From: Candidatus Uhrbacteria bacterium
GTDB taxonomy: Bacteria; Patescibacteriota; Patescibacteriia; UBA9934; GWF2-40-263
Assembly (NCBI GenBank): GCA_016188495.1
Contig: JACPHU010000010.1
Coordinates: 349-64,348 of the forward strand
Length of the DNA: 64,000 nucleotides
Reading direction: 5' to 3'
Both the position numbers and the translations under genes were made by a program. Positions 933 through 45,768 of this stretch are shown here, piece after piece; the stretch's first letter is position 1; every line of letters starts with the position of its first letter. A model generated the notes under the pieces. The model searched no databases. It worked only from the letters and a program-made list of their open reading frames with translations, and was not told where the DNA came from.

Positions 933-1000
933 TTTTTCCTAATATATTGACGTATTTCTTTATCAGGATCGCCCAACGATCTTTTATACCCACATTCATT

Positions 1001-2992
1001 ATGACCATTATACAGTACGCTTTAGCCGCCGGAGTCCTTGCTATTGCCTGGGGCGCTGTTCTCACCCAATGGATTCTTAAGCGTCCCGCAGGAGAAGGAA
1101 AAATGAAAGGTATTGCCCTTGCTATCCAAGAAGGAGCCAATGCTTACATGGCCCGTCAATATAAAATGATCACCCTCATTGGAATAATCATCTTCCTGAT
1201 TCTCGGTTTTACCCTTACCTGGACCCTTGCCCTTGGTTTTCTTGTAGGAGCCGTTCTCTCTGGACTTGCCGGATATATCGGTATGTCTGTTTCTGTCCGG
1301 GCCAATGTGCGTACAACAGAAGCGGCAAAGAGCGGACTGTCCCAAGCCCTTGACGTAGCGGTCCGCGGTGGAACCGTCACCGGACTGTTAGTGGTGGGAC
1401 TCGCCTTATTGGGAGTCACTGGCTTCTATGCCCTTACCATGGATATCTCCGCATTGATTGGTCTTGGATTCGGCGGATCTCTTATCTCCGTCTTTGCCCG
1501 ACTTGGTGGAGGAATCTTCACAAAAGCGGCTGACGTAGGAGCTGACCTGGTTGGAAAAACAGAAGCAGGTATCCCGGAAGATGATCCACGCAACCCAGCC
1601 GTGATTGCCGACAACGTCGGTGATAACGTCGGTGATTGTGCAGGAATGGCTGCTGACTTGTTTGAAACCTATGCCGTCACTCTTGTGGCTACCATGGTCT
1701 TAGGAAACCTTCTTGCCCCAAACTCCGATGTGCTTGTGATGTATCCTCTGGCTCTTGGATCTATCGCCATCGTTGCCTCCATCATTGGAACATTTTTCAT
1801 TAAACTCGGTAAAAGCCAAAACATCATGGGGGCCTTGTATAAAGGTCTCGCTGCTGCCGGAGTACTGGCGGCTGTAGGATTTTGGTTCATCACAAAAGGA
1901 TTTAATTTTTCCGGAACAGGAATGGAAGCAATGCCTTTGTTCTGGTCAGCCCTCCTTGGTCTTGCTGTCACAGGTTTTTTGATTGTCATCACAGAATATT
2001 ACACAGCCACGCACTATAAACCGGTTCAAAAACTCGCAGAAGCTTCACAATCAGGACACGGAACCAACATCATTGCAGGTCTGGCTCTTTCCATGAAATC
2101 AACAGCCCTGCCAGTGATCACAATCGTTGCTGGAATCTTAATTGCCTATGATCTTGCAGGACTTTACGGAATTGCCATTACCGCCGTTGCAATGCTTTCT
2201 TTGACAGGAATCATTGTGGCTATGGATGCTTATGGTCCTATCACAGACAACGCCGGCGGAATTGCAGAAATGAGCGATCTCCCTCCTGAAGTTCGCGCGG
2301 TCACAGATCCATTGGACGCCGTTGGAAACACCACCAAAGCCGTAACCAAGGCTTACGCCATCGGCTCAGCAGGACTTGCCACGCTCGTGTTATTTGGCGA
2401 CTACGTTCATACCATTGAAGCCACTGGGGCAAAAATCGTCTTTAGTCTTGTGGATCCACAAGTGATTGCAGGACTCTTTATCGGCGGACTTATTACATAT
2501 CTTTTCGCCGCTATGGCAATGGAAGCGGTAGGAAAAGCCGCGGGTGCGGTTGTGGAAGAAGTTCGACGTCAGTTCCGTGAAATTCCAGGAATCATGCAAG
2601 GAACCGCTAAACCAGAATATGGAAAAGCCGTAGATATCGTGACAGCCTCAGCCGTCAAATACATGATTGCCCCTTCATTACTAGCTGTATTTTCTCCTGT
2701 AATTGTAGGATTTGGATTAGGAGCCGAGGCTCTTGGAGGATTATTGATTGGTTCCATTATCACAGGACTGTTTGTAGCCGTTTCTATGACCACAGGCGGT
2801 GGGGCGTGGGACAATGCAAAAAAATACATTGAAGCAGGAAACTACGGTGGAAAAGGATCTGATGCCCACAAAGCCGCGGTAACTGGTGATACGGTTGGTG
2901 ATCCATACAAAGACACTGCCGGACCTGCCATCAACCCAATGATTAAAATTCTCAACATTGTAGCCCTCCTGATCGTAGCTCTGATTGTCTAA
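1001..2992 (+). CDS. hppA: membrane-bound proton-translocating pyrophosphatase (H+-PPase). Start set at the internal ATG ([11 protein letters not shown]...) rather than ORF-track 947.
   Basis: Motifs '[43 protein letters not shown]' and '[18 protein letters not shown]' are diagnostic of V-type H+-PPases; multi-TM protein about 660 aa. Confidence 0.9.
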
Positions 2993-3003
2993 GTGTAAAA
3001 AAT

Positions 3004-3038
3004 AAAACACCTTGGCTAAAAAGCTGTGGTGTTTTTTT
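3004..3038 (+). terminator. rho-independent terminator after hppA
   Basis: AAAACACC...GGTGTTTTTTT stem-loop plus T-run. Confidence 0.6.
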
Positions 3039-3092
3039 AATTTAAGAAGGTAATGAAACTCCCCGCGAGCCAAGCTGACGGGGTATCAGGCT

Positions 3093-3141
3093 GCATATTC
3101 CCTGAGCGGAGGAACGTTGCGACGAACCGTAGTCGAAGGGT
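3093..3141 (+). repeat. Family-2 short dispersed repeat, copy a
   Basis: GCATATTCCCTGAGCGGAGG...GTAGTCGAAGGGTG; same conserved ends as copies at 18047, 31945, 44791(-), 52374. Confidence 0.7.
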
Positions 3142-3282
3142 GCAAATACAGCCTTCGACGGATTCGACCATTCGACAAGCTCATGGCAGGCAGCTCACCG
3201 CAGACAGGCTCAGGCAATAAAATACGCAGCCGTTCGATCTACTCACGACAGGCAAGCTGACGGGGTATTTACCCTGAGGGAA

Positions 3283-3311
3283 TAAAAAACGACTCTCCAT
3301 CAGAGAGTCGT
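3283..3311 (-). terminator. rho-independent terminator for minus-strand gene 3341..3913
   Basis: CGACTCTC-CATCAG-AGAGTCG hairpin followed (on minus strand) by T-run. Confidence 0.55.
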
Positions 3312-3340
3312 CACGTGAACCGGAAAGAAAAAATTCTTGA

Positions 3341-3913
3341 CTATCCCTGGTCGACCTGAGCCAGTGGTCGATATCGACACTCTCCGAACTCTACGCCCGA
3401 CGACTGAGCAAAGGTGTCCAGAAGTTTCCGGTACTCGGTCTTGATCACCGTACGGGAAGACACCCTGTCAAACTCGGTCACCCCATGCAGATAGATCACG
3501 TTGTCTGGTTCCAATTCTGTACCGCCCCACCAGATCTGTATGCGATACATACCGTCGGACATTCCCCCTATCCTTTCGATGCTCTTAGCCCCCATGTTTC
3601 GAAACTGCTTTATGAGTAGAAGTGCACTGTTCGTCATGGGTATACTGAATGAACAGTCCGACGGCGGGGTAATATTGATGCGGAACGAACCATCTAAAGA
3701 CAACGAATCCTCCGCCAAGGGCACAGTTTCCAACTCAACGAGCACTCTATCCTTCAATGACGTAAGCTTCTGGAACTCCACCTGGAATTCGGTCACGACA
3801 GGAGGAACAGTTAACCCTTCCTCTGCGAGTTGGTTAAGATATCCCAACACCGCATCGAAAGAAAATCTAAAACCATCCGCCACGTGATTACGCACACCGA
3901 GCTCTTTGGACAT
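3341..3913 (-). CDS. hypothetical protein (190 aa), first gene of the candidate island, divergent from the rest
   Basis: Long ORF with no recognizable motif; divergently oriented relative to 4091..; downstream terminator present. Confidence 0.5.
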   Translation of the reverse strand: MSKELGVRNHVADGFRFSFDAVLGYLNQLAEEGLTVPPVVTEFQVEFQKLTSLKDRVLVELETVPLAEDSLSLDGSFRINITPPSDCSFSIPMTNSALLLIKQFRNMGAKSIERIGGMSDGMYRIQIWWGGTELEPDNVIYLHGVTEFDRVSSRTVIKTEYRKLLDTFAQSSGVEFGECRYRPLAQVDQG

Positions 3914-4006
3914 GACGTTCTCTTTTTATTAAGGAGTGTTCGTAAATCCGTAGTTTTACTTCCAGGACGGCAGGAAGTTGAAAATATATTACTTTCTTCA
4001 ATTTTT

Positions 4007-4022
4007 GTCAAGTATTCTTGAC
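4007..4022. promoter_or_regulatory. 16-bp perfect palindrome GTCAAG-TATT-CTTGAC in divergent intergenic region (candidate operator / -35 overlap)
   Basis: Seen directly; lies between divergent ORFs 3341..3913(-) and 4091..6073(+); contains TTGAC -35-like hexamer. Confidence 0.35.
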
Positions 4023-4090
4023 TTTTTTACCTTCAAAATTTACACTCACCCCTCGTTCTTTTACAAGTAAAACTGCTTAAGGAGCTAAAA

Positions 4091-6073
4091 ATGGCAAAAA
4101 AAGTTGGACTTAGCAATCGAGACAGACAAACCGCTCTGGTTCACGCGACATTTAATCATGGCAATTCTCTCTCAGGCAACGTAAAAAAAGTTCCTGGAAC
4201 TTTTTCAGATACCACGAGTCTTCAAACACAGTGGTTTCTAGAAAACACACAAACAACGGCCATGAAGGACGCCCTGCTCATACAACAGGTGCTCATGCGT
4301 ATGGTAAGGATGAAAAAAACCCAAAGAAATACCCTGTCAGAACCGGAACTTTTAGAAAAACTGGTAAACCGACTCATCAAAATAGCACGGCCGGAAATTA
4401 TTTCTTATCTGGAAGAAACAGAAAAACATCATCTCTATTTTAATGATTTAAACCAGATGATGTCTGTTTTTTCCTGGATTCAAAAAAAGGTGGGGGAAGA
4501 ACTTGGATATAAAGGTGGGGGAAGACAAATCCCCGGCAGCAACCATAGAGCAAAAGATGATGTCTTTTGGAAAAACGTTTATTCCATGAGCTGCCAGCTC
4601 TTTGGATTTTTCCAAGATCATTGGGGATGCTTCTGCACAGAAAAGGAAGCGGTCCCTATTCAGTCGGCCCAGATAACGATTCGCGCGTTTGAAATTATCT
4701 ACAAACTCATGAGCACTGTGCCTCCCTGCAAAGTACTTCGTCTGGTCCAAAGCGCCCATCAGGCAAGAATAGACTTACAGCAGATAGAACGTATTGCTCT
4801 GAGTCATATCCCCATGCGAATAGACGATTTCATCCAGCTTATGGCTGATAAAATCCTTACGCCAAAAACAAGCATACTCTTCCTCAAGTATCCGGAACTC
4901 ATTGACGCACTCTCTTATGAAGGAATCCGACATCTTTTCAGACGATGGAAAGAATCCGAGAGGAAAACAAATATCCTTGTCTTTGCCCAATCGATCAGAC
5001 AGGAACTGTATCCCGATACGCTTCCAGACGGAATAAAAACGGAGTGGGAGATATTGGAACATCCGCGATTATTTTCATTCCTTCATGCGTTGCACGGAAC
5101 AACACAAGGAGAAATATCCTTTTCTTTTCCTGACCACGCCTACGCACCCGGTCTCTATACACCCAGTAATGCGATGATCCTTCTTCCTAAAACGGTTCCG
5201 ATGCTTGTCGCAAGGCAGGACCAACCCCTGATCCAAGCATCACCTCGCCAAGAAGAAGGCGAGTATGATTACCCTATTCTCGATCTGGATGAAGATGAGA
5301 ATGAATCTGATGCACTGACTCAGATAACGTGTATACAGACCGCAGAAAATTTCTTCTGTGAAGAAGTTTTCTCTCTCTGGACGGAACGAGCGGAAGCCTA
5401 TTCAGCGTCACATGAGAATCCTTGCCTACTCACTTCAAAATCGGAAACCTCTCTTTGGGAAGAATCTGCTGATGTGGAAAATCCCTGGGACGTTGTTATC
5501 TATCTGATCGAAGAAGATCTGAAAGAAAAGCTTGTTGCTTCTGCGACTGAAGATCCTGATCTAGTGGATTTGATGCAAGAAATGCAAGCCGTTCATCGTT
5601 TGCTAAACTTCGCTCGCGCGGGAGATGCTGAGGGAGTCCTCGATTGTTGGGCCTCCTGGATCGATCCCATCCGCGGTCGAATAAAAAAACTCGATGGGCG
5701 ACTTAAACAGACAGAGAAAGAGGTAACGATTTCAACTCTCTTGAAAGAAGAGGTTCTGCCAATTTCTCTGGTGGAGGAGTGTGAAACAGAAGAAATGACC
5801 GTACAGGAAACACCTGCGGTCTCCCTCCAAATACAAGAACCTTCTCCTGTCCAAGAATTGACACCCAGCGTGGAAATCCCTGCTGAAAGTCAACTCGTGA
5901 CACAGACAAGGGAACTCCTTGCTAAGCTACCTGTGGGATCCATGCGCAAACAGCTTAAGAAAAAGCTGGATACGCTCATCGGGGAAGCGACGCAAGGCGA
6001 AGGCGCATCCCTAAAAGCAGCCTTCACACATCTGCAGGGAGAAATCCAAAGCCTGCTTGACGTTATTTCCTAA
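4091..6073 (+). CDS. hypothetical protein (660 aa), acidic C-terminal region, no recognized domain
   Basis: Long uninterrupted ORF directly upstream of the SNF2-MTase gene; C-terminal Glu/Asp-rich low-complexity segment. Confidence 0.55.
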   Translation: MAKKVGLSNRDRQTALVHATFNHGNSLSGNVKKVPGTFSDTTSLQTQWFLENTQTTAMKDALLIQQVLMRMVRMKKTQRNTLSEPELLEKLVNRLIKIARPEIISYLEETEKHHLYFNDLNQMMSVFSWIQKKVGEELGYKGGGRQIPGSNHRAKDDVFWKNVYSMSCQLFGFFQDHWGCFCTEKEAVPIQSAQITIRAFEIIYKLMSTVPPCKVLRLVQSAHQARIDLQQIERIALSHIPMRIDDFIQLMADKILTPKTSILFLKYPELIDALSYEGIRHLFRRWKESERKTNILVFAQSIRQELYPDTLPDGIKTEWEILEHPRLFSFLHALHGTTQGEISFSFPDHAYAPGLYTPSNAMILLPKTVPMLVARQDQPLIQASPRQEEGEYDYPILDLDEDENESDALTQITCIQTAENFFCEEVFSLWTERAEAYSASHENPCLLTSKSETSLWEESADVENPWDVVIYLIEEDLKEKLVASATEDPDLVDLMQEMQAVHRLLNFARAGDAEGVLDCWASWIDPIRGRIKKLDGRLKQTEKEVTISTLLKEEVLPISLVEECETEEMTVQETPAVSLQIQEPSPVQELTPSVEIPAESQLVTQTRELLAKLPVGSMRKQLKKKLDTLIGEATQGEGASLKAAFTHLQGEIQSLLDVIS

Positions 6074-6210
6074 TGCACGCCTCAAGACCGTCCTTTTATA
6101 AAAAGGGCGGTTTTTAATAGACAAAATCAAAACTCTCTGCTAAAAACAGGGGTCGCGTAAAGACCTCTCTCTTAACGCGAAGCCCTTTCCAAACCAACGG
6201 AGCGATACCC

Positions 6211-9200
6211 ATGTCTATCACCCAAAAAAGGATGCTGAATCTTCTGTCGGGTATGACCGATGGGGAACGCAAATTCGAGTTCTTCAAATATCTCTTTGAA
6301 CGCAATGAACTGACAGAACATGACCTGTATGAACTTCTGGTAAAGTCTATTGAGCGTAATCCGAGCTATTATTTCGAACAGATCACCAAGAACGATCTGC
6401 TCAAATATCTTTGGCACCGATTTCAAGCCTATCCTGAAACGCTCGCCAGAGCACTCGTACGAGTATGTCCAGAACTGTTCTACGGCAACCATGAATGGGT
6501 CACGCGCCTTATTATTCGCCTCCAAAGCGACAAACGCCTGGGAACAGAACTGGGCATGATTACCGTGGCCCCCAAGCAGGGAACAGGCCAAGGATCCAAC
6601 CGACTGACGGTGGCAATCAATGAGAAGCTGATACAATCCATTCCTCGTGACGTACGGGATCTTGATGTGGAATGTCGTATACGGGAACTCTTGTACTGGT
6701 ATTCACGCGACCCGAAACTAGGAGCGGAATATACCCAGGAACAGATCGACAGTGCAAACCCTTATGAAGCACAGGTGTGGAATCTGGCTCGAACGCATCT
6801 GGATCACTACCTCAAAGAATCTTTCCCACAGACCGTATCAAAGATGAATGACCGACTCTTTCCGGCCATGCATGTGCGCTGGTGGCTGGATCGCTCTGCC
6901 GCGCAAACGCGCGTTCTCAACATTGGCGACACTGGAACGTATAAAACCAGTTACTCGGTCCTGGCGATGCGTCAAGCAGAAGCAAAAAAAGTACTGATCT
7001 TTTGTGCGGCTAACGCCAGAGCGAACTGGGAACAGGAACTGAAACTCTACCTACCCCATCTTCGGGCTGTCGGTCGAGTAGAAATCGTACAAAACTCCAG
7101 TCATGTTATTGCCGATAATGCAGAATTCATTATCGTAGCTTACACGACGTTGGTCCATCGTCCCGTCATCCAAATGCTCAAAGAGCAAAAAATCGATGGA
7201 ATTATTTGGGACGAAAGTCATTACGGGAAAAACGTGGTAGGAACCACTCCTGCCAAACGTGCTTTGGGAGCATTGGAAATTATTCAATCCCATGTTCCGT
7301 CTCTTAAAAAAGTGGTTGCCAATTCTGCTACACCTTGGGAAAACAGTCCGGAAGAAATAGCTGCTCTGGCGTGCATATTGCGCCCCGAGCTTTTTCCAAA
7401 CCCTCGAGAATTTCTGCGGTCGGGCGCCTACGCCAGTCCGCGATTCCTGCGAGCCTTATTTGAGACGTGCATCCTGGATATCGGGCTACATGAAGTGCGG
7501 GAACTACCCACGATTGATCCAAAACCTTGGGAAGACCTCTTTAATCCTGTCGCGATCCGGATGACCCCGCCTCAGGCAGTCCTCTATCAGCAGCTTCTGC
7601 ACCAAATCCCTGATCAAACAGATGAGGAAGATTCTCTCAAAATCATCAATGGTGTGGATGGGAGCCAGAAAGTCCGTTATCTCTTATATGCCTGCGATAT
7701 GCCTCATGTGCTCGCGCGCGTGGCAGAATACGATTGGCCCGCAGAGATCGAAGACGCGTTTGAAGACTGGAGCTTCTCGGCCAAGCTCGTGTGGCTAAAA
7801 GACCAGATCGATCAAAACATCGGAACAGCCAAAATCGTGGTGGCGTCTGGAATGTATGTTTCTGGCATCACCAAACCGATCAAAGATGATGAAGAAATCC
7901 TCTGGATCGGACGTCAGTTACGGGAATGGTATGGAGAAAAAACAGTCTTGATTTTAGATGGGGATGTACGCATTGGCGAGGATCGCAACGATCTGATCAA
8001 ACAATGGCGAACGCAAGAGTCTGCCCGAATCCTGCTGGTCTCCATGAAGACCTGTCCGGATTCGATTAATCTGTCTGTCACTATTGAAGACGATCCCACA
8101 CTCAAAGAACTCCTCGTCATCGGGTTTGCTCTGGATTGGAAACCTTGGAAACAATTCCTCGGGCGATTCTGGCGTGAGGGATTACGCATTCCTATGCGTT
8201 ACGTCTGTCCTGTGCTGCAAGGCACGATCGACGAAGCCCGCATGGAACTGAATCGCCGAAAATGGAAGTCACTCACGCGTTTCCGTTCTCGAGTTCCTCC
8301 CACAGACGAGGAATGGACGAACTATTCAAAATCAGACAGCGCCACGCTTTCAGACCTTATGCGCAGCCCAAAAGAATGGGTGAGCATCGTCAATAACGAT
8401 GTCCGAGGCATCGGCGAGGAAGCCGCGCGCTGTTATCTGGATAAAGAAAACGGTCTCTCCACTCAGGGAGAACAGTTCGCCAGAAGCTTCCTTGCCGCTC
8501 AAGAACACATGGCCTCCGGTCACATCGCCCGCCATATGCGCTACGTGTTGCAGCAAGGCCTCATTCCTGGGGGGATCCTCACGGACTCCACGCGGATTTT
8601 GGACGCGGGATGCGGACCAGCAACACTAGCGCGAACACTCCAGATGCCCGTCACAGGTGTAGATCTCAATCCTTGGATGATCACTGTGGCGCGCGAAGCA
8701 AATCCTGAGCTCACCCTCAATTGTCAGGTTGGAACCGTGAGCCAACTTCCACCTTCTTGGACAGGACGATTTCGTTTAAGTGTCTGCTCCATGGTTCTTG
8801 ATTGGACACAATTGGGAACGATCCAAGATTCACAAAGAATCAAAGCTCTTATGGAATTGATTCGAGTCACAGATCCTCATGGACTCATTTGGTTAACGTT
8901 CAATGAAAAAGCTTTAGACGAGTCACTGTTTAAAACATGGACCCAGGCTCTGAAAAAGAGCGGTTGTGAACTCTCACCACTCACGGGTTTCGTCGTCCCT
9001 GTAGAACAGGCGGGAAAAAAGAAACCAGACTTCGCTTTCTGGTCGATCGTCTTCACTGCCGCTGGACATCATCTGACTCCGTTTGACCCGTTATCTTTCC
9101 GATTCCGGTTTGAACTTGAACAGATGAAATACAAGCAGGCAAAGACAGGTTATTCTTCTAAGTCCTCAAAGGATCTAGAACCGACCTGTTATGAACGGTT

Positions 9201-9396
9201 CGTCATCAAAGATCCTGGAGCCTATGAGACATCAGACACCGTGGGCGTCCGACAAACACTCCTTACAGAACTCACACGATGGAGCAAGGTCGAAGGAAAA
9301 CCCATCAATATCTCCCAACAGGTGACAGACTTGTTTGGAGCCGATTGGAGAATCCTTCAACAGCTTCAAAAACGAGGAATTATCTCCTTCACCTGA
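6211..9396 (+). CDS. SNF2-family helicase fused to class-I SAM-dependent methyltransferase domain (1061 aa)
   Basis: Helicase motifs: I 'NIGDTGTYKT', Ia 'LIFCAANARANWEQE' (SNF2 '...NW..E'), II 'IIWDESHYGKN' (DEAH-x-x-KN), III 'SATPWENSPEEIAALACIL', helicase-C 'LLVSMKTCPDSINLSV'. MTase motifs near aa 795-930: 'ILDAGCGPATLA', post-I 'VTGVDLNPWMITVA', 'FRLSVCSMVLDW', 'LIRVTDPHGLIWLT'. Confidence 0.75.
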   Translation: MSITQKRMLNLLSGMTDGERKFEFFKYLFERNELTEHDLYELLVKSIERNPSYYFEQITKNDLLKYLWHRFQAYPETLARALVRVCPELFYGNHEWVTRLIIRLQSDKRLGTELGMITVAPKQGTGQGSNRLTVAINEKLIQSIPRDVRDLDVECRIRELLYWYSRDPKLGAEYTQEQIDSANPYEAQVWNLARTHLDHYLKESFPQTVSKMNDRLFPAMHVRWWLDRSAAQTRVLNIGDTGTYKTSYSVLAMRQAEAKKVLIFCAANARANWEQELKLYLPHLRAVGRVEIVQNSSHVIADNAEFIIVAYTTLVHRPVIQMLKEQKIDGIIWDESHYGKNVVGTTPAKRALGALEIIQSHVPSLKKVVANSATPWENSPEEIAALACILRPELFPNPREFLRSGAYASPRFLRALFETCILDIGLHEVRELPTIDPKPWEDLFNPVAIRMTPPQAVLYQQLLHQIPDQTDEEDSLKIINGVDGSQKVRYLLYACDMPHVLARVAEYDWPAEIEDAFEDWSFSAKLVWLKDQIDQNIGTAKIVVASGMYVSGITKPIKDDEEILWIGRQLREWYGEKTVLILDGDVRIGEDRNDLIKQWRTQESARILLVSMKTCPDSINLSVTIEDDPTLKELLVIGFALDWKPWKQFLGRFWREGLRIPMRYVCPVLQGTIDEARMELNRRKWKSLTRFRSRVPPTDEEWTNYSKSDSATLSDLMRSPKEWVSIVNNDVRGIGEEAARCYLDKENGLSTQGEQFARSFLAAQEHMASGHIARHMRYVLQQGLIPGGILTDSTRILDAGCGPATLARTLQMPVTGVDLNPWMITVAREANPELTLNCQVGTVSQLPPSWTGRFRLSVCSMVLDWTQLGTIQDSQRIKALMELIRVTDPHGLIWLTFNEKALDESLFKTWTQALKKSGCELSPLTGFVVPVEQAGKKKPDFAFWSIVFTAAGHHLTPFDPLSFRFRFELEQMKYKQAKTGYSSKSSKDLEPTCYERFVIKDPGAYETSDTVGVRQTLLTELTRWSKVEGKPINISQQVTDLFGADWRILQQLQKRGIISFT

Positions 9397-9484
9397 GATG
9401 CGCACGCATCTCTTTTTTATTGACCAGATTCAGCAAAATTGTTAGGATTTTTTCTTACAACTTTTGTAAGAAAAGGAGGAGATC

Positions 9485-10084
9485 ATGTCTTTATCCAAAT
9501 CGCTCTTTCAACTAACCGTCCAGGAACTGGCCAAGATTCTGCAAGGACAGGACCTAGAACTCCCTGACGGGAGAGTGATAAAGATCCTTAAGACGGATTA
9601 CTACACTCGGACAGAAAACGAGAAGGGAAGTTACAAACCCATGCTCAACATGGAACCGGGAAGCGTCTATGTTGCGCGTATCATGAATGCTTTTTTGTTT
9701 TTGATTGTGGCTCTGGAAGGAACCGACTCTGGAGCCTGTGTGCGAGTGACGAGCATCCAAACTCAAAACGGAATCATCAAAGGACCGGGGCGCGTAGGAA
9801 CATGGATAGGCTTCAATATGCATCAACAGACAGGTCGTCTAATGGAACGTGAAGGGAAACCTTTGTTACTCAGTATGGAGGGAGTTCTGACACCGGAAAT
9901 TCTTCCTGTTCAGAAGACTGTGCTCATCCCCATAACAGACAGCGTTCTCTCAAAATACACGGATCATCTTGCGATCCACTTTATGTCAGAACGTTTGGAT
10001 GAAGCCTACGAAGAGTTTCTGGAACGGATAAAGAGGGAATGGATTACGGAAGACGAATTAAAAAAACGTCTAGGGATCAGTTAA
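9485..10084 (+). CDS. hypothetical protein (199 aa) in island
   Basis: ORF with AGGAGG RBS upstream (GAAAAGGAGGAGATCATG); no recognized motif. Confidence 0.55.
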   Translation: MSLSKSLFQLTVQELAKILQGQDLELPDGRVIKILKTDYYTRTENEKGSYKPMLNMEPGSVYVARIMNAFLFLIVALEGTDSGACVRVTSIQTQNGIIKGPGRVGTWIGFNMHQQTGRLMEREGKPLLLSMEGVLTPEILPVQKTVLIPITDSVLSKYTDHLAIHFMSERLDEAYEEFLERIKREWITEDELKKRLGIS

Positions 10085-10100
10085 TTCAAGGAGGATCTCT

Positions 10101-10472
10101 ATGACACTTGAGCAGACGCTCATGGCTAAAATCCAGGAATCATTTGAATACTGGAATCGGTCTGGAAGAAAAGGATTCTTCTCTACTTTTTTGGAAAAAC
10201 AAGAACCAGGAATTCTGGAATTGCTAGAAGAACTTCCGAGAATCCTGACAAAGCTGGATCGAAAAATACTCAAAGAGCTGAAAGCAAAACCTGCTCAGCG
10301 GCCTCTGTGCGATGCCATCCTAGCCCTCTACATGCCTCAAATGACTCTGCTCTATCAGCAAAAAAAGGCCAAAAAGACTTTCGAAGAATTTCTCGATCAT
10401 CTCAGACGAGAATGCCCCACAGCCGAAGCCCTGGAAAACTATCTGAAAAAATTATCTCCTCAACAGCTATAA
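10101..10472 (+). CDS. hypothetical protein (123 aa) in island
   Basis: ORF 16 nt after previous gene with GGAGGA RBS; no recognized motif. Confidence 0.5.
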   Translation: MTLEQTLMAKIQESFEYWNRSGRKGFFSTFLEKQEPGILELLEELPRILTKLDRKILKELKAKPAQRPLCDAILALYMPQMTLLYQQKKAKKTFEEFLDHLRRECPTAEALENYLKKLSPQQL

Positions 10473-10590
10473 ATGGCTGTTTTTAAATAAAAATTAAACA
10501 AAAATGATTGACATAACAAGGCTGGTTTGTTAGGTTCTAGGGTCAGATTGTTCCTTTCAATCCGAAAACTTCTTTTAAGAAGGAGAAAAA

Positions 10591-11652
10591 ATGTCTCTCA
10601 AAATGATTGAAATTCCTGGTATTTCGGTCATGAAACAAGGTGAACAGTATCTTCTCGTCTTCGTCGTACCGGCTCAGGTACTAGTCGAAATTGGGATCAC
10701 CCTGCGTTTTAATGAGCATCCCCTGGGAGTCAATAGGGGACTTACCGTTCATCGAGCAAAAGATATTCTTGCCCACATGAAGGCAGGAAAATCCAATAAC
10801 CTGATGCGTGATCCCATCCAAGGATGTCTCTATGTAGGAGACGGGCATGAATGGATCTTTGACGAAAAAAACCGTGTCCTCAGAGGCGAGGTAGAAACGG
10901 ATCCGGACAATCGTTTGGATGCTTGTTTCCTCGTCATCGATGACGGACAGCATCGATTTGCCGCATTGGAAATGTTATCCGGTGAGAATCGCCAACACTG
11001 GAGTTTCACGGTCATCGCCGGAATGAACATGTCTGTTGAAGAACGGACCGAGCTGTTCATGCAGGGTGAAAAAAGACAAAAGGTCTCTCCGCGTTTACTT
11101 TTGCAGATGATGGATGCCAACGACACCTTTGCAAATGAGTCGACGGCAACGGCTTACCGCATGGCAAAGGCTCTCAACGAAGTAAATGGATCACCCCTTA
11201 AAGGAAAGATCTACTTCGAACAGGGTCCTCGAGTTCCCAGCGGTATGGTCAGCGTGTCTTCCTTGCTTGGCCAACTTAAATACTGCGTGGGGAAAAATTC
11301 GCGCCTTATTCCCTATACCAGCGAGCAGCAGCGACAAGCTCTCCTGAATCTGTTCATCGCTGCATCGCGTCAGTGGCCCCAGGCTTGGGGACAAGAAGAT
11401 AAGACGTTGGGGAAACATATAGGTTACCTGACGCTTATCACTCTCCTTGCCCGCAGCGGCAATCTGCATAGTCTCTTGAAGGAAGACCTATCCCTAGACT
11501 CTTTCAAGAAAGCTATGGAATTTGCAAAAGGATTTCGATGGGAACAGGCCGGCGTCAAGGACGGATCAATCAATCATAACCGTCTGGCCGTCTTGTTGGA
11601 TGATCATATCGGACAGGCAATCGCCGCCTCGCAAGCTGATCTGAAAAAGTGA
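10591..11652 (+). CDS. DGQHR-domain protein (DndB-like, ParB-nuclease superfamily)
   Basis: Signature 'LVIDDGQHRFAALEML' (DGQHR motif) preceded by 'GEQYLLVFVVPAQVL', as in DndB/DpdB-type DGQHR proteins. Confidence 0.7.
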   Translation: MSLKMIEIPGISVMKQGEQYLLVFVVPAQVLVEIGITLRFNEHPLGVNRGLTVHRAKDILAHMKAGKSNNLMRDPIQGCLYVGDGHEWIFDEKNRVLRGEVETDPDNRLDACFLVIDDGQHRFAALEMLSGENRQHWSFTVIAGMNMSVEERTELFMQGEKRQKVSPRLLLQMMDANDTFANESTATAYRMAKALNEVNGSPLKGKIYFEQGPRVPSGMVSVSSLLGQLKYCVGKNSRLIPYTSEQQRQALLNLFIAASRQWPQAWGQEDKTLGKHIGYLTLITLLARSGNLHSLLKEDLSLDSFKKAMEFAKGFRWEQAGVKDGSINHNRLAVLLDDHIGQAIAASQADLKK

Positions 11653-11660
11653 TCGTGTAA

Positions 11661-11695
11661 CGACCGTACACAAATCTGTGTACGGTTTTTTATTT
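11661..11695 (+). terminator. rho-independent terminator ending island operon
   Basis: ACCGTACACAAATCTGTGTACGGTTTTTTATTT. Confidence 0.65.
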
Positions 11696-11722
11696 ATTCG
11701 CTTAATTTTCTACTGTATTCGT

Positions 11723-11759
11723 TGACAATCCACAGTAAAATCGCTATTCTCCCCCCGTT
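11723..11759 (+). promoter_or_regulatory. candidate sigma70-like promoter for tig (TTGACA - 17 nt - TATTCT)
   Basis: Hexamers read directly; about 45 nt upstream of tig start. Confidence 0.3.
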
Positions 11760-11800
11760 ATCTTTCACCTATTTTTGCAAAAAAATATCATCAATTTGTT

Positions 11801-13090
11801 ATGCCAAACGTTGAAAAAGAATCCTTAGAAAAAAATATCCTCAAGCTCACGTTCACTATTACCCAAGAAGAGGCCCAACCTTATTTTGAGGAGGCTGCGA
11901 AACGGATTTCCCAACAAACTTCCATTCCAGGATTTCGCCCAGGACATGCGGACTATGCGGTTGTGAAACAACGTGTGGGAGAAATGAAAATCATGGAAGA
12001 GGCTTTAGAAAGCCTGGTCCGCAAATCGTTTGTTGAGACCATTCTTGCTGAGAATATCGATACCGTCGGTTCTCCTAAAGTGGACGTGATTAAACTTGCC
12101 CCAGGCAACGATGTTGTCTTCACCGCAGAAGTTACTCTCATGCCTAAAGTTAAAAGTCTTGCCGACGTAAAAAAACTCAGCGTAAAAGCTCAAACAGCCC
12201 ATGTTGAAGACAAAGAAATCGATTTGGCTTTGAGAGATCTTCAGCGTATGAGAACCACCGAAGTCCGTGCCACAGCAGAAAAAACGACAACCCAAAAAGA
12301 TAAAGTGGTCATTGCGATGAACATGAAGCTTGATAATGTTCCTTTGGAAGGAGGACAATCACCCAACCACAGCGTTTATTTGAATGAAGAATATTACATT
12401 CCAGGATTTAAAGAAAAATTGGAAGGAATGAAAGAAGGCGAAGAAAAATCCTTTACAATCCCCTTTCCAAAAGAACATGCACAAGAATTTTTGGCAGGAA
12501 AAGAGGTCGCGTTTGATGTCACTCTCAAAGAACTTTACCACCTTCAACCCCCTGAATTGGACGACACCTTTGCCGTAACGCTGGGTACAAAAGACATGGC
12601 AACCCTGCGCGAAATCATTCAAAAAAATCTTTTGACAGAAAAAGAACAGGAAACCAAGTCAAAAGAAGAAAAAGAAATGCTCGAGCTCTTGGCAAACAAA
12701 TCTCAATTTGAGGATATTCCCAATCTTCTGATAAATGAAGAAATCAACAAGATGATTCTCGAACTCCAGCGAGGTGTGGAGGCCCAAGGACTTGAATTTG
12801 ATACATATATCAAAAATCTTGGAAAAACGTTGGCACAAATGAAACTCGATTTTACGCCCCAAGCTTTGATGCGTGTAAAAGTAGCTATTGTCATGCGTGA
12901 AATCGCTAAACAAGAAAAAATCGAAGTTGATGAAAAAGAACTCGACGAGGAATTAGACCGCATTGCCGGCCAATACGAAGAAACCAAAACCAAAGAGCAG
13001 GTCTATTCTCCACAATATCGAGACTACATGGAACAGATCCTCCGAAACCGAAAAGTAATAGAACACTTAAGAGGAATCATTATCAAATAA
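11801..13090 (+). CDS. tig: trigger factor
   Basis: N-terminal ribosome-binding region with 'GFRPGH' motif (cf. GFRKGK), length 429 aa, FKBP-like middle and C-terminal chaperone arm-like composition. Confidence 0.85.
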   Translation: MPNVEKESLEKNILKLTFTITQEEAQPYFEEAAKRISQQTSIPGFRPGHADYAVVKQRVGEMKIMEEALESLVRKSFVETILAENIDTVGSPKVDVIKLAPGNDVVFTAEVTLMPKVKSLADVKKLSVKAQTAHVEDKEIDLALRDLQRMRTTEVRATAEKTTTQKDKVVIAMNMKLDNVPLEGGQSPNHSVYLNEEYYIPGFKEKLEGMKEGEEKSFTIPFPKEHAQEFLAGKEVAFDVTLKELYHLQPPELDDTFAVTLGTKDMATLREIIQKNLLTEKEQETKSKEEKEMLELLANKSQFEDIPNLLINEEINKMILELQRGVEAQGLEFDTYIKNLGKTLAQMKLDFTPQALMRVKVAIVMREIAKQEKIEVDEKELDEELDRIAGQYEETKTKEQVYSPQYRDYMEQILRNRKVIEHLRGIIIK

Positions 13091-13198: not shown

Positions 13199-14050
13199 AT
13201 GCTCTTTGGCGCTCATGTAAGTTCTGCGGGAGGATTATGGAACGCTCCAAAAAATGCCGCGGAAATCGGATGTGAGGTGTTGCAGCTGTTTTCCCGTCCT
13301 CCCCAGGGAGGAAAACCAAAACCTATTACAAAAAAAGTCGCTGAACAATTTAAAGAAAAAATGAAGAAATACTCTATCCAACAAGCTTATATTCATGCGC
13401 CTTATTTTATTAATCTAGCTTCAAGTAATGAACGTATCCGTCATAGTTCTGTGGTTATTCTGCGCGAAGAACTTGAACGTGGCTCTCTTTTAGGATGCAA
13501 AGCCATGATGTTCCATCCAGGATCTGCCAAAGATGTGGGTCAAGAAGAAGGGGAATCTCTTGTGATAGAAGGCCTTAATACGATCTTGGATGGTTACGAG
13601 GGCTCTTGCCAACTCTTAATCGAGATTTCAGCGGGTGCAGGTATGGTAATGGGGGATACATTTGAGGAACTTGCACGATTTATCCACCAAACCAAACAGG
13701 CCGAAAAAATCGGAATTTGCTTTGATACCCAGCATGCCTTTGCCAGCGGTTACGATATCCGTACACAAGAGGGACTGGATCGCGTATTAGCACAATTTGA
13801 TGAAAAAATAGGGTTAAAACGTCTTATTGCAAGTCACTGCAACGACTCGAAAGTAGATCTTGGAACCCACAAAGACCGTCACGAACATCTAGGAGAAGGC
13901 TTTATGGGACTAGAAACTTTTAAACAGTTTATCCACCATCCAAAAATTCAGCATTTAGATCTCATTTTGGAAACTCCTATAGACGAGCAGCGCAAAAAAG
14001 AAATGGAACTCTTGAAATCATTCCGTTTAGAAATTCAAAAATACGTATGA
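13199..14050 (+). CDS. nfo: endonuclease IV (AP endonuclease, TIM-barrel)
   Basis: N-terminus 'MLFGAHVSSAGGL...' matches Nfo 'IGAHVSAAGGL'; His/Glu metal ligands distributed as in Nfo. Confidence 0.85.
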   Translation: MLFGAHVSSAGGLWNAPKNAAEIGCEVLQLFSRPPQGGKPKPITKKVAEQFKEKMKKYSIQQAYIHAPYFINLASSNERIRHSSVVILREELERGSLLGCKAMMFHPGSAKDVGQEEGESLVIEGLNTILDGYEGSCQLLIEISAGAGMVMGDTFEELARFIHQTKQAEKIGICFDTQHAFASGYDIRTQEGLDRVLAQFDEKIGLKRLIASHCNDSKVDLGTHKDRHEHLGEGFMGLETFKQFIHHPKIQHLDLILETPIDEQRKKEMELLKSFRLEIQKYV

Positions 14051-14277: not shown

Positions 14278-14524
14278 TCGGTATTTTCTTGAGCGGAGGT
14301 TCATCTATTCCACCGATCGAAAAAGGATTACATCGGACAATCCGCTGGAAAGTCAGAAAACTTCCTTTAAAGACCCCGTGACTTTTAATGCAAAGATATC
14401 CGTATTCAGAACAGGATGGATAAAAACGACAATAACCATCGGGGAAAAAACGACTCAACGGACCATGATCCAGAGAAAATATCCTTTGATAAAGACGAAT
14501 CATGATCAATAAAAACGTTCTCAT
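14264..14524 (-). CDS. yidD: membrane protein insertion efficiency factor YidD
   Basis: 'RFYPSCSEYGYLCIKSHGVFKGSFLTFQRIVRCNPFSIGGID' = YidD Cys motif. Confidence 0.85.
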   Translation of the reverse strand: MRTFLLIMIRLYQRIFSLDHGPLSRFFPDGYCRFYPSCSEYGYLCIKSHGVFKGSFLTFQRIVRCNPFSIGGIDEPPLKKIPTKFP

Positions 14525-14865
14525 ACAGAAAGAACTCGGGCTTTTTTTAAACTGTACACCACCTGTTTTGAAATTTCTTCAAAATCCTTTCCAATGGCTT
14601 CTTTTTTTAAAAAAAAGAGAACATCGTATCCTGGCTTCATGTGTGGAAGATAGGCTTGGATAACCGCGCGCACTTGTCGCTTTAGGCGATTGCGCACAAC
14701 GGCTTTCTTTGACACTTTTGTTCCAACCACCACAGCAAAACGAGAAACGGAAAGCTTATTTGGTTGAAATTTCATTCCTAGCCAGATACCAAAGACGCTC
14801 TTGCCACGGGCAAAGAGCGCTTTGATATCTTTTTCGTGTCTGAGTCGATACTCAGAAGAAAGCAT
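14521..14865 (-). CDS. rnpA: ribonuclease P protein component
   Basis: 'RLRHEKDIKALFARGK...' and basic 'VVRNRLKRQVRAV' RnpA motif; positioned between rpmH and yidD. Confidence 0.85.
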   Translation of the reverse strand: MLSSEYRLRHEKDIKALFARGKSVFGIWLGMKFQPNKLSVSRFAVVVGTKVSKKAVVRNRLKRQVRAVIQAYLPHMKPGYDVLFFLKKEAIGKDFEEISKQVVYSLKKARVLSV

Positions 14866-15083: not shown

Positions 15084-15143
15084 CTATCCACAATCGATCA
15101 ACTAAATCTCGTATGACCTGACCGCTTGCCCACATGTGGATAA
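15084..15143. promoter_or_regulatory. DnaA boxes upstream of dnaA (CTATCCACA at 15084-15092; perfect TGTGGATAA at 15135-15143)
   Basis: Direct match to TTATCCACA consensus (8/9 and 9/9 reverse). Confidence 0.6.
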
Positions 15144-15208
15144 TTAGTCTAAACTACAGACCACGTGTAACTTTTGAGAAGGAAACTATCTCATTCATAC
15201 TCGATGCT

Positions 15209-16615
15209 ATGAATACTAATGAACTTTGGCAAGCCGTTCTCGGAGAACTCGAACTTTCTTTAAGTAAGGCAAACTTTACCACGTGGTTCAAAAACACTTT
15301 CATTTCTGATGTAGAAGAACACGCCATTACCATTGGAGTTCCAAACATGTTCACCAAGGCTTGGTTAGAAAAAAAATATACGAAGGAAATTCTTCGCTCT
15401 CTCCAAGAACTGACAAAAAATTCTATTAAACAATTGTCTTATCGAGTGGAATCACGCCCCATCAATCCACAAGGGCTACCGCTCTTTGAAAAGGAACAAC
15501 GCCAAGAACCATCAGTGGCTCCTTCGCATCAACAATCTTCTTACTACCAACCTCAACAGGCAACCGAGGTAAAAGAGATACGTACAGGTGAATTTTCTTT
15601 AAATGGAAAGTATTGCTTTGAAACATTCATCGTAGGAAAACAAAATGAACTCGCCCACGCCGCAGCACAGGCTGTTTGTGCCCAACCAGGAGGTATCTAC
15701 AATCCTTTATTTATCTACGGTGGTGTAGGACTGGGAAAAACACATATTCTTCAAGCAATCGGGAACGAACTCATCCGAAAAAACGCGAGTACAAAAATTC
15801 TCTACGTAACATGCGAGCGATTTACCAATGATTTTATTGGAGCATTGCGTTCAAATAGAATTGTAGAATTTAAAAATAGATACAGAACGGTCGATGTCTT
15901 GCTTGTAGACGATATCCAGTTCATTACAGGAAAAGAAGGAACTCAGGAGGAATTTTTTCACACATTCAATCAGCTTTACCAAAATAATAAGCAAATCGTT
16001 ATTTCCTCCGACCGTCCTCCAAAAGCGATCCCAGCTCTTGAAGACCGTCTTGTTTCACGCTTTGAATGCGGTATGTTGGCCGACGTCGGTTCACCAGATT
16101 TTGAAACGCGCTGCGCCATCTTAGACACAAAATGTCTGGAAAAGCAGTATTCTCTAGAACGAGAAATTTTGCATCATATCGCCACCGTCGTTCAAACAAA
16201 CGTCCGCGAACTTGAAGGTGCTCTGAATAAAGTCATTGCCTTCCATCAGTTTAAAAATACGCGCCCAACACTTGAATCAGTAAAGCCTATTCTTTCAAGT
16301 TTTCAACCAACATCTACTAGAAAAAACGTGACGCCAAAACAACTGATCGTCACGGTTGCCAACTACTTCGATATCCATATGGAGGATTTGCTTGGAAAAA
16401 GCCGCCAAAAACGATTGGCCTTTCCACGCCAAATTGTGATGTACATCATGCGAGAAGAAATGAAAGCAAGTTATCCCTCTATTGGATTAGAACTTGGTGG
16501 AAGAGATCACACAACAGCCATGCATGCCTACGACAAGATCACAACCTGTCTTTTGGAAGATGAAAAACTTCAACACGACATCGAACTGATCAAACAAAAG
16601 TTATACGCACTGTAA
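15209..16615 (+). CDS. dnaA: chromosomal replication initiator DnaA (start moved to internal ATG MNTNELWQAVLGELE...)
   Basis: N-terminus 'MNTNELWQAVLGELELSLSKANFTTWF', AAA+ Walker A 'GGVGLGKTHIL', Walker B 'LLVDDIQF', C-terminal DNA-binding 'HTTAMHAYDKI'; ORF-track start 15134 overlaps a DnaA box. Confidence 0.9.
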   Translation: MNTNELWQAVLGELELSLSKANFTTWFKNTFISDVEEHAITIGVPNMFTKAWLEKKYTKEILRSLQELTKNSIKQLSYRVESRPINPQGLPLFEKEQRQEPSVAPSHQQSSYYQPQQATEVKEIRTGEFSLNGKYCFETFIVGKQNELAHAAAQAVCAQPGGIYNPLFIYGGVGLGKTHILQAIGNELIRKNASTKILYVTCERFTNDFIGALRSNRIVEFKNRYRTVDVLLVDDIQFITGKEGTQEEFFHTFNQLYQNNKQIVISSDRPPKAIPALEDRLVSRFECGMLADVGSPDFETRCAILDTKCLEKQYSLEREILHHIATVVQTNVRELEGALNKVIAFHQFKNTRPTLESVKPILSSFQPTSTRKNVTPKQLIVTVANYFDIHMEDLLGKSRQKRLAFPRQIVMYIMREEMKASYPSIGLELGGRDHTTAMHAYDKITTCLLEDEKLQHDIELIKQKLYAL

Positions 16616-18046: not shown

Positions 18047-18093
18047 AATATTCCCTGAGCATAGCGACCAGTGGAAGCGAAGTCGAAGGGGTA
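18047..18093 (+). repeat. Family-2 short dispersed repeat, copy b
   Basis: AATATTCCCTGAGCATAGCGACCAGTGGAAGCGAAGTCGAAGGGGTA. Confidence 0.7.
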
Positions 18094-24174: not shown

Positions 24175-24306
24175 GAAGTTTTATGCTATGAATGACGAAA
24201 CTCGATGAGATTTGCGTGAACGGGCTGGCAGCCCCATCAGACGTACCCAAACGTACGTCTGATGGGGTGCCTGGGCGCCCGTGAACGCAAAGATCGCGAG
24301 TTTCGT
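24175..24306 (+). repeat. Family-1 structured palindromic element, copy B, ending 3 nt before tRNA-Cys
   Basis: 132-bp imperfect palindrome; outer arms GCTATGAATGACGAAACTCG / CGAGTTTCGTCATTCATAGC perfect; subterminal ATGAGATTTGCGTGAACGGGC vs GCCCGTGAACGCAAAGATCGC asymmetric. Confidence 0.75.
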
Positions 24307-24309
24307 CAT

Positions 24310-24384
24310 TCATAGCTATGGCCACGTGGCGAAGTGGGAACGCAGGGGTCTGCAAAACCTCGATGAGTCGGTTCAATCCCGACC
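24310..24384 (+). tRNA. tRNA-Cys (anticodon GCA)
   Basis: Cloverleaf folded by hand: acceptor GGCCACG/CGTGGCC, anticodon stem GGGGT/ACCTC with loop CTGCAAA, T-arm GTCGG-TTCAATC-CCGAC, encoded CCA. Confidence 0.8.
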
Positions 24385-24466
24385 GTGGCCTCCAACAAAA
24401 AACGATAGAAATTTCTATTGTTTTTTGTTATTATATACAAGGAATTAAATTTGAATCTCTGCATTT

Positions 24467-32134: not shown

Positions 32135-32261
32135 GAGATCTCTTCAAAAATCGATGAGATTTCGTTGAATGGGGAAATCAGTGATAGAGCCGTATTCAAA
32201 ATACGGTGACGAACCGATGGGGCCCCATGAAACGAAAGATCGCGATTTTTGAAGAGATCTC
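32135..32261 (+). repeat. Family-1 structured palindromic element, copy C, ending 3 nt before tRNA-Ser
   Basis: Outer arms GAGATCTCTTCAAAAATCG / CGATTTTTGAAGAGATCTC perfect 19 bp; subterminal ATGAGATTTCGTTGAATGGGG vs CCCCATGAAACGAAAGATCGCG. Confidence 0.75.
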
Positions 32262-32264: not shown

Positions 32265-32357
<93 letters not shown>

Positions 32358-45640: not shown

Positions 45641-45768
45641 AGACTTCTGCAAAACTCGCGATCTTGCCTTTCACGGGCGCCCGTTGACCCCGTTCTCCCT
45701 ACTCTGAGTAGGGTTCTCGGGGCTCAACAGCCCGTTCAAGGCAATCTCATCGAGTTTTGCAGAAGTCT
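45641..45768 (-). repeat. Family-1 structured palindromic element, copy E (minus orientation), overlapping the 3' end of ORF 45671..46969
   Basis: Outer arms AGACTTCTGCAAAACTCG / CGAGTTTTGCAGAAGTCT perfect 18 bp; inner sequence close to copy A/B subfamily. Confidence 0.75.

Follow-up and report, generated by a model that had tools for sequence, protein, structure and literature searches.

The interval described here lies between hppA and tig on a contig of Candidatus Uhrbacteria, a lineage of the candidate phyla radiation (CPR; Patescibacteria), and belongs to a 64-kb stretch that we analysed as a whole and call the window. It holds six open reading frames (ORFs), at exactly the positions given in a first-pass annotation made from the sequence alone; the genes around the central one are labelled "hypothetical protein" or "DGQHR domain-containing protein" in GenBank. 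The conserved unit of this locus is a gene pair encoding an SNF2-type ATPase fused to a methyltransferase and a protein with the fold of AAG/MPG glycosylases; all else is variable. The interval and its two flanking genes are arranged as follows.

947-2992, plus strand: hppA, H+-pyrophosphatase (H_PPase, 882 bits, Pfam)
3341-3913, minus strand: 190-aa ORF with no match in Pfam, NCBIfam, PADLOC or PHROGs
4091-6073, plus strand: gene for a 660-aa protein, a fast-evolving partner ('group A') with no domain or PDB match
6211-9396, plus strand: gene for the 1061-aa SNF2-methyltransferase fusion (Pfam SNF2-rel_dom and Methyltransf_11/25)
9485-10084, plus strand: gene for a 199-aa protein, residues 1-135 an AAG/MPG-fold domain and residues ~145-199 a three-helix tail
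10101-10472, plus strand: gene for a 123-aa helical protein that shares homology, over its C-terminal half, with the 199-aa protein's tail
10591-11652, plus strand: gene for a 353-aa DGQHR-domain protein of the ParB/Srx superfamily (DDGQHR motif at nt 10939-10956)
11801-13090, plus strand: tig, trigger factor (Trigger_N, FKBP_C, Trigger_C, Pfam)

Pfam and NCBIfam bear out the initial calls of an H+-pyrophosphatase, a trigger factor, a DGQHR domain and a fusion of SNF2 to a class-I S-adenosylmethionine (SAM) methyltransferase. Among the six proteins of the interval, profile searches with Pfam and NCBIfam placed the fusion and the DGQHR protein in families; the other four (190, 660, 199 and 123 residues) fall in no Pfam or NCBIfam family at default thresholds and have no PADLOC match. 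These four had been set down as unknown; two of them can now be related to something known, the 199-aa protein as a homolog of the AAG/MPG fold and the 123-aa protein as a paralog of its tail.

The fusion opens with a family-specific helical N-domain (residues 1-230), followed by two SNF2 ATPase lobes (~231-700), a class-I SAM methyltransferase domain with an Rrp8/nucleomethylin-like fold (~786-950) and a C-terminal domain (951-1061). Its N-lobe matches SNF2-rel_dom above the curated Pfam cutoff (residues 252-403; 27.7 bits, cutoff 24.9), and residues 796-894 match Methyltransf_11/25 (PF08241, 36.7 bits versus a cutoff of 21.2; PF13649, 35.6 versus 27). The sequence carries GDTGTYKT, DESH, SATPWEN, QFLGRFWREGQ, LDAGCGP and D818, and with them the SNF2 motifs II (DExH), III and VI (QxxxRxxRxGQ) as well as two marks of class-I SAM methyltransferases, GxG in motif I and an acidic residue following strand 2. 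Across 26 fusion sequences that are 37-70% identical to the window protein, ATPase motifs II, III and VI, the SAM-binding motif I (LDAGCGP) and the acidic loop residue D818 are all invariant. SNF2 ATPases are duplex-DNA translocases; the motor of the fusion is apparently active, and its best fold matches are nucleosome remodellers.

The methyltransferase domain is not of a DNA-methyltransferase type, a point missed in the first-pass annotation. It resembles Rrp8/nucleomethylin and Bud23, not the DNA amino- or C5-methyltransferases: the top fold matches are nucleomethylin, TmtA, ChlM, UbiG and Bud23, and weak matches to the Rrp8 family (PF05148, Methyltransf_8) occur in distant relatives of the fusion. 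Pfam and NCBIfam returned no DNA amino-methyltransferase (N6-adenine or N4-cytosine) or C5 family for the fusion, and the (D/N/S)PP(Y/F/W) form of motif IV is not seen in its sequence. Rrp8 and Bud23 methylate purine ring nitrogens in RNA, yielding N1-methyladenine (m1A) and N7-methylguanine (m7G).

The 199-aa protein encoded next belongs to a family that is homologous to PF02245 (AAG/MPG) and has the AAG fold; this membership holds at the level of the family, the window protein itself being below threshold (E 0.24). AAG flips N-alkylated or otherwise altered purines into a pocket and recognises 3-methyladenine (3mA), 7-methylguanine (7mG) and 1-methylguanine (1mG). The last ~55 residues of the 199-aa protein form the three-helix tail, which matches the C-terminal half of the 123-aa protein with an hhalign probability of 99.3% (E 3.9e-20) and also matches the C-termini of extra paralogs found in some genomes. 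The heads of these paralogs consist of DNA-binding repeats, namely HNH_repeat in locus L003 and INT_rpt or helix-turn-helix (HTH) arrays in L022. Different heads on one common tail suggest docking to a common hub. A tail motif at the N-terminus of the fusion was considered and rejected (hhalign probability 0.3%). Extra genes with DNA-binding repeats, from none to three or more per locus, are inserted in or beside the module at the following positions.

L003: 14104-17944
L008: 8561-9898
L009: 6619-7383
L022: 2020-3327 and 7426-9246
L024: 6670-7443 and 13504-16340

The extra paralogs end in the shared tail in L003, L008, L009 and L022; the repeat genes of L024 gave no match to the tail model.

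The kinship of the methyltransferase domain to Rrp8 and Bud23 raises the question of an RNA-directed system acting in ribosome or tRNA biogenesis, in which the methyltransferase would modify rRNA in the manner of Rrp8 or Bud23, the partner would be an RNA-binding protein of the FMT-C/AAG fold, and the motor would be a superfamily 2 remodeller of ribonucleoproteins. The motor, however, is SNF2-type, from the family of double-stranded DNA (dsDNA) translocases, with nucleosome remodellers as its best folds. The sequence homology of the partner is to PF02245 and not to Fmt, and the accessory proteins carry DNA-binding repeats or a ParB-like domain. We consider an RNA-directed role improbable.

The pairing of fusion and AAG-like protein extends well beyond the window. 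In every locus of the Uhrbacteria family for which downstream sequence is available, an AAG-like gene directly follows the fusion. A profile of the fusion family, run against 1.84 billion representative proteins, gave 157 matches at E <=1e-30, many of them 760-2256 aa long and covering both the SNF2 and the methyltransferase parts; one subgroup comes from Candidatus Roizmanbacteria, of another CPR superphylum. Eight distant fusions were checked. All combine SNF2-rel_dom with Methyltransf_11/25, three have a weak Methyltransf_8 match in addition, and none reaches any NCBIfam cutoff. Where the contig continues past a distant fusion (1112-2256 aa), an AAG-like gene lies directly downstream in three of five cases (L026, E 3e-29; L027, 2e-30; L029, 2e-24, by hidden Markov model (HMM) search), and the L026 gene also has a precomputed PF02245 assignment. 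The distant fusions that recur with an AAG-like gene share only the SNF2 and methyltransferase domains with the window fusion. Because the pair recurs in these distant loci while the other partners change, we take it to be the conserved unit.

The pairing is not universal. In L028 and in the nearest outgroup, L024, the gene downstream of the fusion is not detectably AAG-like; L024 has a 126-aa protein and many HNH_repeat paralogs instead. In L031 no gene is called in the ~900 nt after the fusion, and hence no AAG-like partner is seen. Toxin-antitoxin genes (AbiEii; MazE with PIN) and a Y1 transposase, at 17411-18750 in L024 and 490-1205 in L028, stand beside the fusions of these loci, a context that is defence-island-like and unlike that of the window.

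Closer relatives of the window locus permit an estimate of its age. We found 27 near-full-length relatives of the fusion in a collection of 5.8 billion proteins and 17 species-level loci in GTDB genomes; all named near-full-length relatives are from the CPR. Neighbourhoods were mapped by searching with profile HMMs of the window proteins, the genes in related loci being simple ORF calls. In every relative with a fusion at least 48% identical to that of the window (L007, L003/L010, L008, L009, L012, L004/5/11 and L013), the window gene order is kept within the reach of the contig: rnhB, hppA, the 660-aa homolog, the fusion, the 199-aa homolog, none to three extra paralogs, the 123-aa homolog, the DGQHR gene and tig. 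The exception is L013, where a sigma-70-like gene replaces the 660-aa homolog. These relatives span fusion identities of 48-89% and hppA identities of 75-96%, and the module occupies the same site in eight related genomes. Identities to the window in three of these loci are listed below.

hppA: L007 96%, L003 87%, L013 75%
tig: L003 76%, L013 47% (L007 no value)
Fusion: L007 89%, L003 68%, L013 48%
DGQHR protein: L003 62%, L013 38% (L007 no value)
199-aa protein: L003 52%, L013 41% (L007 no value)
123-aa protein: L003 52%, L013 33% (L007 no value)
660-aa protein: L007 50%, L003 29% (L013 no value)

Since identities fall in parallel across L007, L003 and L013, the module diverges in step with the flanking genes of its host. 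Between the window and L007, the ratio of nonsynonymous to synonymous substitution rates (dN/dS) is 0.042 in hppA and 0.058 in the fusion; it reaches 0.24 in the 660-aa gene (dN 0.355), which evolves at ~5 times the rate of the fusion. The fusion is thus under strong purifying selection, and hppA, the fusion and the 660-aa gene are all real and selected genes.

An empty hppA-tig junction is seen only in L020, a distant locus (fusion 35% identical) in which hppA and tig are 4 nt apart and the module lies ~7 kb off. Any insertion must therefore be ancient, because the only genome with an empty junction still has the module nearby. The module came to lie between hppA and tig long ago, at the base of the window's clade, and the interval is a lineage-specific, vertically inherited CPR gene module rather than a fresh insertion. 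The first-pass annotation had described an insertion-like island, a description that holds only in part: the shared gene order, the host-like divergence and the guanine-plus-cytosine (GC) content (0.468 in 2993-11800 versus 0.438 elsewhere in the window, a difference of +0.03) all speak against recent acquisition. It had proposed to compare synteny: hppA and tig are indeed adjacent in L020, but five of the six genes lie between them in the closer relatives. It had also named the outcome that would count against an island, the same genes in a core-genome context in relatives, and this is what we see for five of the six, the 190-aa ORF being strain-specific.

Two origins were considered and set aside. 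A mobile element or recent genomic island fits poorly with occupancy of the same site in eight relatives, with the small GC difference and with the lack of any integrase or tRNA in 2993-11800 (Pfam, Rfam). A phage origin was rejected as well: IMG/VR contigs hold no relative of the fusion, PHROGs gave the six proteins no match besides one generic helicase, and fold matches in BFVD are to generic SNF2 helicases only (TM-score ~0.3).

These observations bear on whether the locus arrived by horizontal transfer as a defence island, namely a Dpd, DISARM or Dnd variant not yet described and lodged between housekeeping genes. An SNF2 ATPase, a methyltransferase and a ParB-like DGQHR protein are present, the 660-aa partner is fast-evolving, large partners are exchanged from clade to clade, outgroup loci stand beside AbiEii, MazE/PIN and Y1_Tnp, and hppA and tig are adjacent in L020. 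Against these stand the occupied site in all close relatives with host-like divergence, a GC difference of 0.03 only, the lack of any IMG/VR copy, matches to DrmD, DpdB, DpdE and DndB far below curated cutoffs, and the lack of partner genes in the window. We judge such an island quite unlikely.

The partners around the conserved pair differ between clades. The 660-aa protein is made up of a helical body, a linker rich in P and E, and a C-terminal helix that is conserved; it has homologs in the same slot in seven relatives and is only 50% identical to that of L007, though hppA is 96% identical there. No relatives were detected outside the clade and no Pfam or PDB match was found. Elsewhere the slot holds 513-640-aa 'group B' proteins, and homology between these and the 660-aa family was rejected (hhalign probability 0.3%). 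An all-against-all phmmer comparison of 25 large partners separates several unrelated families. PDB sequence searches with the 660-aa and group B profiles gave nothing meaningful, and ten large partner proteins from related loci had no PADLOC match. Group B proteins share a strongly conserved ~220-aa C-terminal region, with segments such as VVRKETPHLITF and VRSH.RRLP.GQKASEEAR, and have no Pfam, PDB or PADLOC match; this family could be the effector in clades without the DGQHR protein. Its members are:

L001: 7707-9404, minus strand
L002: 7920-9461
L015: 7824-9500
L016: 52-1974
L020: 7760-9493
L023: 3736-5433, minus strand

The DGQHR protein matches TIGR03187 above the curated NCBIfam cutoff (61.2 bits, cutoff 58.85), and its DDGQHR motif is invariant in five orthologs; a GVNR motif is invariant too. 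ParB/Srx-fold DGQHR proteins bind NTP and can nick DNA or regulate (PMC10853773). The protein is confined to the window's clade and missing from the majority of module-bearing loci, and a metagenome scan for relatives added only one short contig. It is a clade-specific accessory, the conserved core consisting of fusion and AAG-like protein.

Sigma-70 genes occur next to the module twice. In L013 a sigma-70-family gene (8624-9892) immediately precedes the fusion, in the slot otherwise held by the 660-aa gene, and in L001 the module is closely preceded by dnaG and rpoD (5950-7233); this could be chance or a transcription link.

The sigma-70 neighbours, together with weak RapA matches in distant fusions, speak for the idea that the fusion is a RapA-like SNF2 factor that recycles RNA polymerase and has acquired extra domains. 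RapA is defined by an equivalog-level score, a tandem Tudor N-domain and association with RNA polymerase; the window fusion does not qualify as a member by this standard, and we regard a RapA-like role as a long shot.

The intergenic sequence at the two ends of the interval and within it contains the following elements; promoter-like and terminator-like sites come from consensus scans only.

2993-3340: intergenic block after hppA, with direct repeats, a dispersed repeat core and the hairpin of the 190-aa ORF; no Rfam match
3288-3312, minus strand: terminator-like hairpin of the 190-aa ORF
9395-9412, plus strand: terminator-like hairpin after the fusion
9420-9448: promoter-like site after the fusion hairpin
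11662-11687, plus strand: terminator-like hairpin of 11 pairs plus a T-run, closing the module
11722-11750: promoter-like site of tig

The hairpin at the end of the fusion and the promoter-like sites suggest two putative transcription units, the 660-aa gene with the fusion and then the 199-aa, 123-aa and DGQHR genes. The strong terminator expected at the right-hand end is there, in the form of the module-closing hairpin. At the left-hand end, the 16-mer CAAGCTGACGGGGTAT that had been read as a border repeat is real: its copies at 3071 and 3253 are the only ones in the window, and two matches arose in none of 100 shuffles. The repeat extends to 19 nt (3068-3086 and 3250-3268; 18/19 identity). 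These direct repeats enclose no more than 163 nt of dispersed repeat and do not flank the hppA-tig interval. The ~50-nt core between them (~3098-3144) recurs at 18047-18093 and 52375-52421, so the block is a dispersed genomic repeat rather than a structure of an island border. This intergenic element, with the core ATATTCCCTGAGCG.AG...CGA..GTCGAAGGGGTA, has hairpin potential and no Rfam match; Rfam searches of 2900-4200 gave no structured RNA even at E <=1.

The 190-aa ORF is confined to this strain, comes with a promoter-like site and terminator of its own, and is an outlier in GC content at third codon positions (0.59 versus ~0.4-0.5 in its neighbours). It stands outside the conserved module. 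In relatives its slot is filled by unrelated genes, which encode a DUF4419 protein in L007 and a KH-domain protein in L003, so that the stretch from hppA to the module contains a small variable hotspot.

A second repeat family, of 30-75 nt and 73-90% identity, occurs in the window at 187-261, 24198-24303, 32147-32251, 45652-45759 (inverted) and 54441-54490 (inverted). Three copies lie ~15-120 nt upstream of the tRNA genes at 24320-24391, 32265-32352 and 54343-54425 (minus strand), and the family may serve as a common promoter, leader or processing element. Rfam finds four tRNAs in the whole window and nothing else.

The remainder of the window is housekeeping: rnpA, dnaA, dnaN, ruvB, an aminotransferase of the cysteine-desulfurase type, a NifU-like gene and endonuclease IV. 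The module is 3.5 kb from dnaA. The genes nearest to it on the tig side are:

13199-14050: endonuclease IV gene, just after tig
14521-14865, minus strand: rnpA
15134-16615: dnaA, of the replication-origin gene set beside the module
16903-18039: probably dnaN (DNA_pol3_beta domains occur in the window; the ORF assignment is putative)

This setting invites an explanation in terms of housekeeping repair or chromosome maintenance, in which an SNF2 translocase would carry a lesion-recognising AAG-like subunit to purines altered by alkylation or deamination, and the methyltransferase domain would act on a protein or RNA partner or serve as a SAM sensor. Vertical inheritance, conserved synteny, strong purifying selection and the nearness of dnaA are in keeping with such a role, and repair genes recur around related modules. 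Endonuclease IV lies just after tig in the window and in L013 and two genes past the AAG-like gene in L020; L001 and L002 have uvrB or uvrA at a distance of up to 9 kb; beside L026 lies an AddA-like helicase-nuclease, and AlkD-like and ExoIII-like genes are near L029. However, we estimate that, in genomes this small, about one 20-kb stretch in three would contain repair genes by chance, and L003, L008 and L009 show no adjacency to endonuclease IV. The catalytic glutamate of AAG is not conserved. A repair role also fails to explain why the SAM-binding methyltransferase is conserved, why the large partners evolve fast and lack homology to one another, and why DNA-binding paralogs vary in number. 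We hold it to be the main rival, if an unlikely one.

We favour instead an ATP-driven system in which a writer that methylates purine ring nitrogens in DNA is coupled to an AAG-fold reader and assembled through the shared tail, serving either to tell self from non-self DNA or to mark the chromosome. We put the probability of this reading at roughly 0.4. Its invariant core is the SNF2-type ATPase fused to the Rrp8/nucleomethylin-like methyltransferase, together with the AAG/MPG-fold protein encoded immediately downstream; Uhrbacteria add a third component, the small protein bearing the tail of the AAG-like protein, and the window's clade the 660-aa and DGQHR proteins. The SNF2 motor would track along dsDNA while the fused methyltransferase places a ring-nitrogen methyl on purines, of the m1A, m3A (N3-methyladenine) or m7G type. 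The AAG-fold subunit would then flip out a base and read the methyl mark or its absence, and orthologs with an acidic residue at the catalytic position could possibly excise the base as well, acting as erasers. Through the shared tail, one complex may gather the AAG-like head and the 123-aa protein, joined in some genomes by the paralogs with DNA-binding repeats. The DGQHR protein is a predicted NTP-gated nuclease or regulator, and the 660-aa protein a putative variable adaptor or sensor. The most likely role, judged from this analysis, would be modification-based discrimination or marking of DNA, akin to restriction-modification or epigenetic marking.

Two lines of reasoning lead to this proposal. 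We infer a DNA target because SNF2 ATPases translocate on dsDNA and because the accessory proteins include DNA-binding repeats and a ParB-like partner. A methylpurine chemistry is suggested by the pairing of a methyltransferase that has m1A and m7G RNA methyltransferases (Rrp8, Bud23) among its fold relatives with an AAG fold, that of the enzyme recognising 3mA, 7mG and 1mG.

Several observations weigh against the writer-reader proposal. The position equivalent to Glu125 of human AAG is D or E in only 10 of 19 sequences (D in the window protein) and otherwise Q, K, R, V or S; of the pocket residues, H136, Y159, Y162 and N169 have been lost and the aromatic at 127 alone is kept. The human sequence used for this comparison agrees with published residue numbers. 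Because the Glu125 position varies and the pocket residues are lost, the AAG-like protein may be no glycosylase at all. In the motor, the canonical Walker A motif GxGK[ST] is replaced throughout the family by GDTGT(Y/Q)KT, in which the glycine before the lysine has been substituted. The nearest folds of the methyltransferase domain work on rRNA or small molecules, not on DNA. Strict vertical inheritance beside the replication origin is atypical for defence islands, and no PADLOC model matches the partners of the module.

A broader version of the proposal is doubtful: that the pair is the core of an as yet unrecognised CPR-wide DNA-modification system in which a translocase writes an N-methylpurine, a remodelled glycosylase fold serves as dedicated reader or eraser, and clade-specific effectors (the DGQHR, 660-aa and group B proteins) are plugged in through the tail. 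If the module does write and read a non-canonical methylpurine, it would represent new DNA-modification chemistry for prokaryotes, a bacterial counterpart of the SNF2-coupled methyltransferases of eukaryotes and a use of the AAG fold outside repair; a writer/reader pair found across the CPR would amount to an epigenetic or immune system of a new class. Should it prove to be a repair or chromatin device instead, it would still be a lineage-defining part of CPR chromosome biology. About 1% of CPR genomes of ~1 Mb goes to the module, which is maintained under purifying selection. Four "hypothetical proteins" thereby become a three-component hypothesis of ATPase-methyltransferase, AAG-fold reader and tail-mediated assembly.

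The module is no Dpd, Dnd or DISARM system, since the defining features of each fail in the window. The first-pass annotation had already noted the lack of their partner genes and had taken the combination to match no described system, and both points stand. Partner-gene checks covered the 64-kb window, through PADLOC and the 25 of 33 Pfam families listed, and revealed no gene for TGT/DpdA, DndC, DndD, DndE, PLD or DUF1998 proteins. PADLOC matched no whole protein of the module and gave two weak partial matches, of mad2 over the methyltransferase domain and of DpdB over part of the DGQHR protein; NCBIfam scores are far below the Dpd and DISARM thresholds. A single DndA/SspA-like match in the window is the class-V aminotransferase of the cysteine-desulfurase family, which we read, with the NifU-like gene, as housekeeping Fe-S assembly (IscS/NifU). 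Our literature search found no description of an SNF2-methyltransferase paired with an AAG-like protein, nor of an SNF2 module in Uhrbacteria, and the Dnd and BREX surveys of the Aravind group do not cover the module.

Likenesses to each of these systems are partial. As in Dpd, where DpdB accompanies SNF2-like helicases, a DGQHR protein stands beside an SNF2-type ATPase; the window protein, however, scores 24.6 bits against a DpdB cutoff of 300, and the same checks find no DpdA, DpdC or preQ0 genes. The DGQHR fold and motif are shared with DndB of the Dnd system, but the window protein reaches only 24.7 bits against a cutoff of 29.1 (PF14072), and DndC, DndD and DndE have no counterparts here. 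Like class 1 DISARM, the module unites an SNF2-family ATPase and a methyltransferase in one locus; it differs in the score of the fusion (16.9 bits, DrmD_b cutoff 950) and in having no DrmA, DrmB (DUF1998) or DrmC (PLD) in the window. The DISARM methyltransferase DrmMI is an N6-adenine DNA methyltransferase separate from DrmD.

Other parallels come from single proteins. DNMT5 resembles the module only in that it couples an SNF2 DNA motor to a methyltransferase; it is a eukaryotic (fungal) C5-cytosine methyltransferase without an AAG-like partner, whereas the domain in the module is Methyltransf_11/Rrp8-like. The AAG/MPG glycosylases (PF02245) lack the C-terminal tail that has been added to the module protein, which has not kept Glu125 and the pocket residues and is encoded beside an SNF2-methyltransferase. 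Type ISP enzymes likewise resemble it only in having motor and methyltransferase on a single chain; in contrast to these, the fusion has neither a nuclease domain nor a target-recognition domain, and its methyltransferase is not of the gamma-class N6-adenine type. The specificity or effector functions of the module could be supplied in trans.

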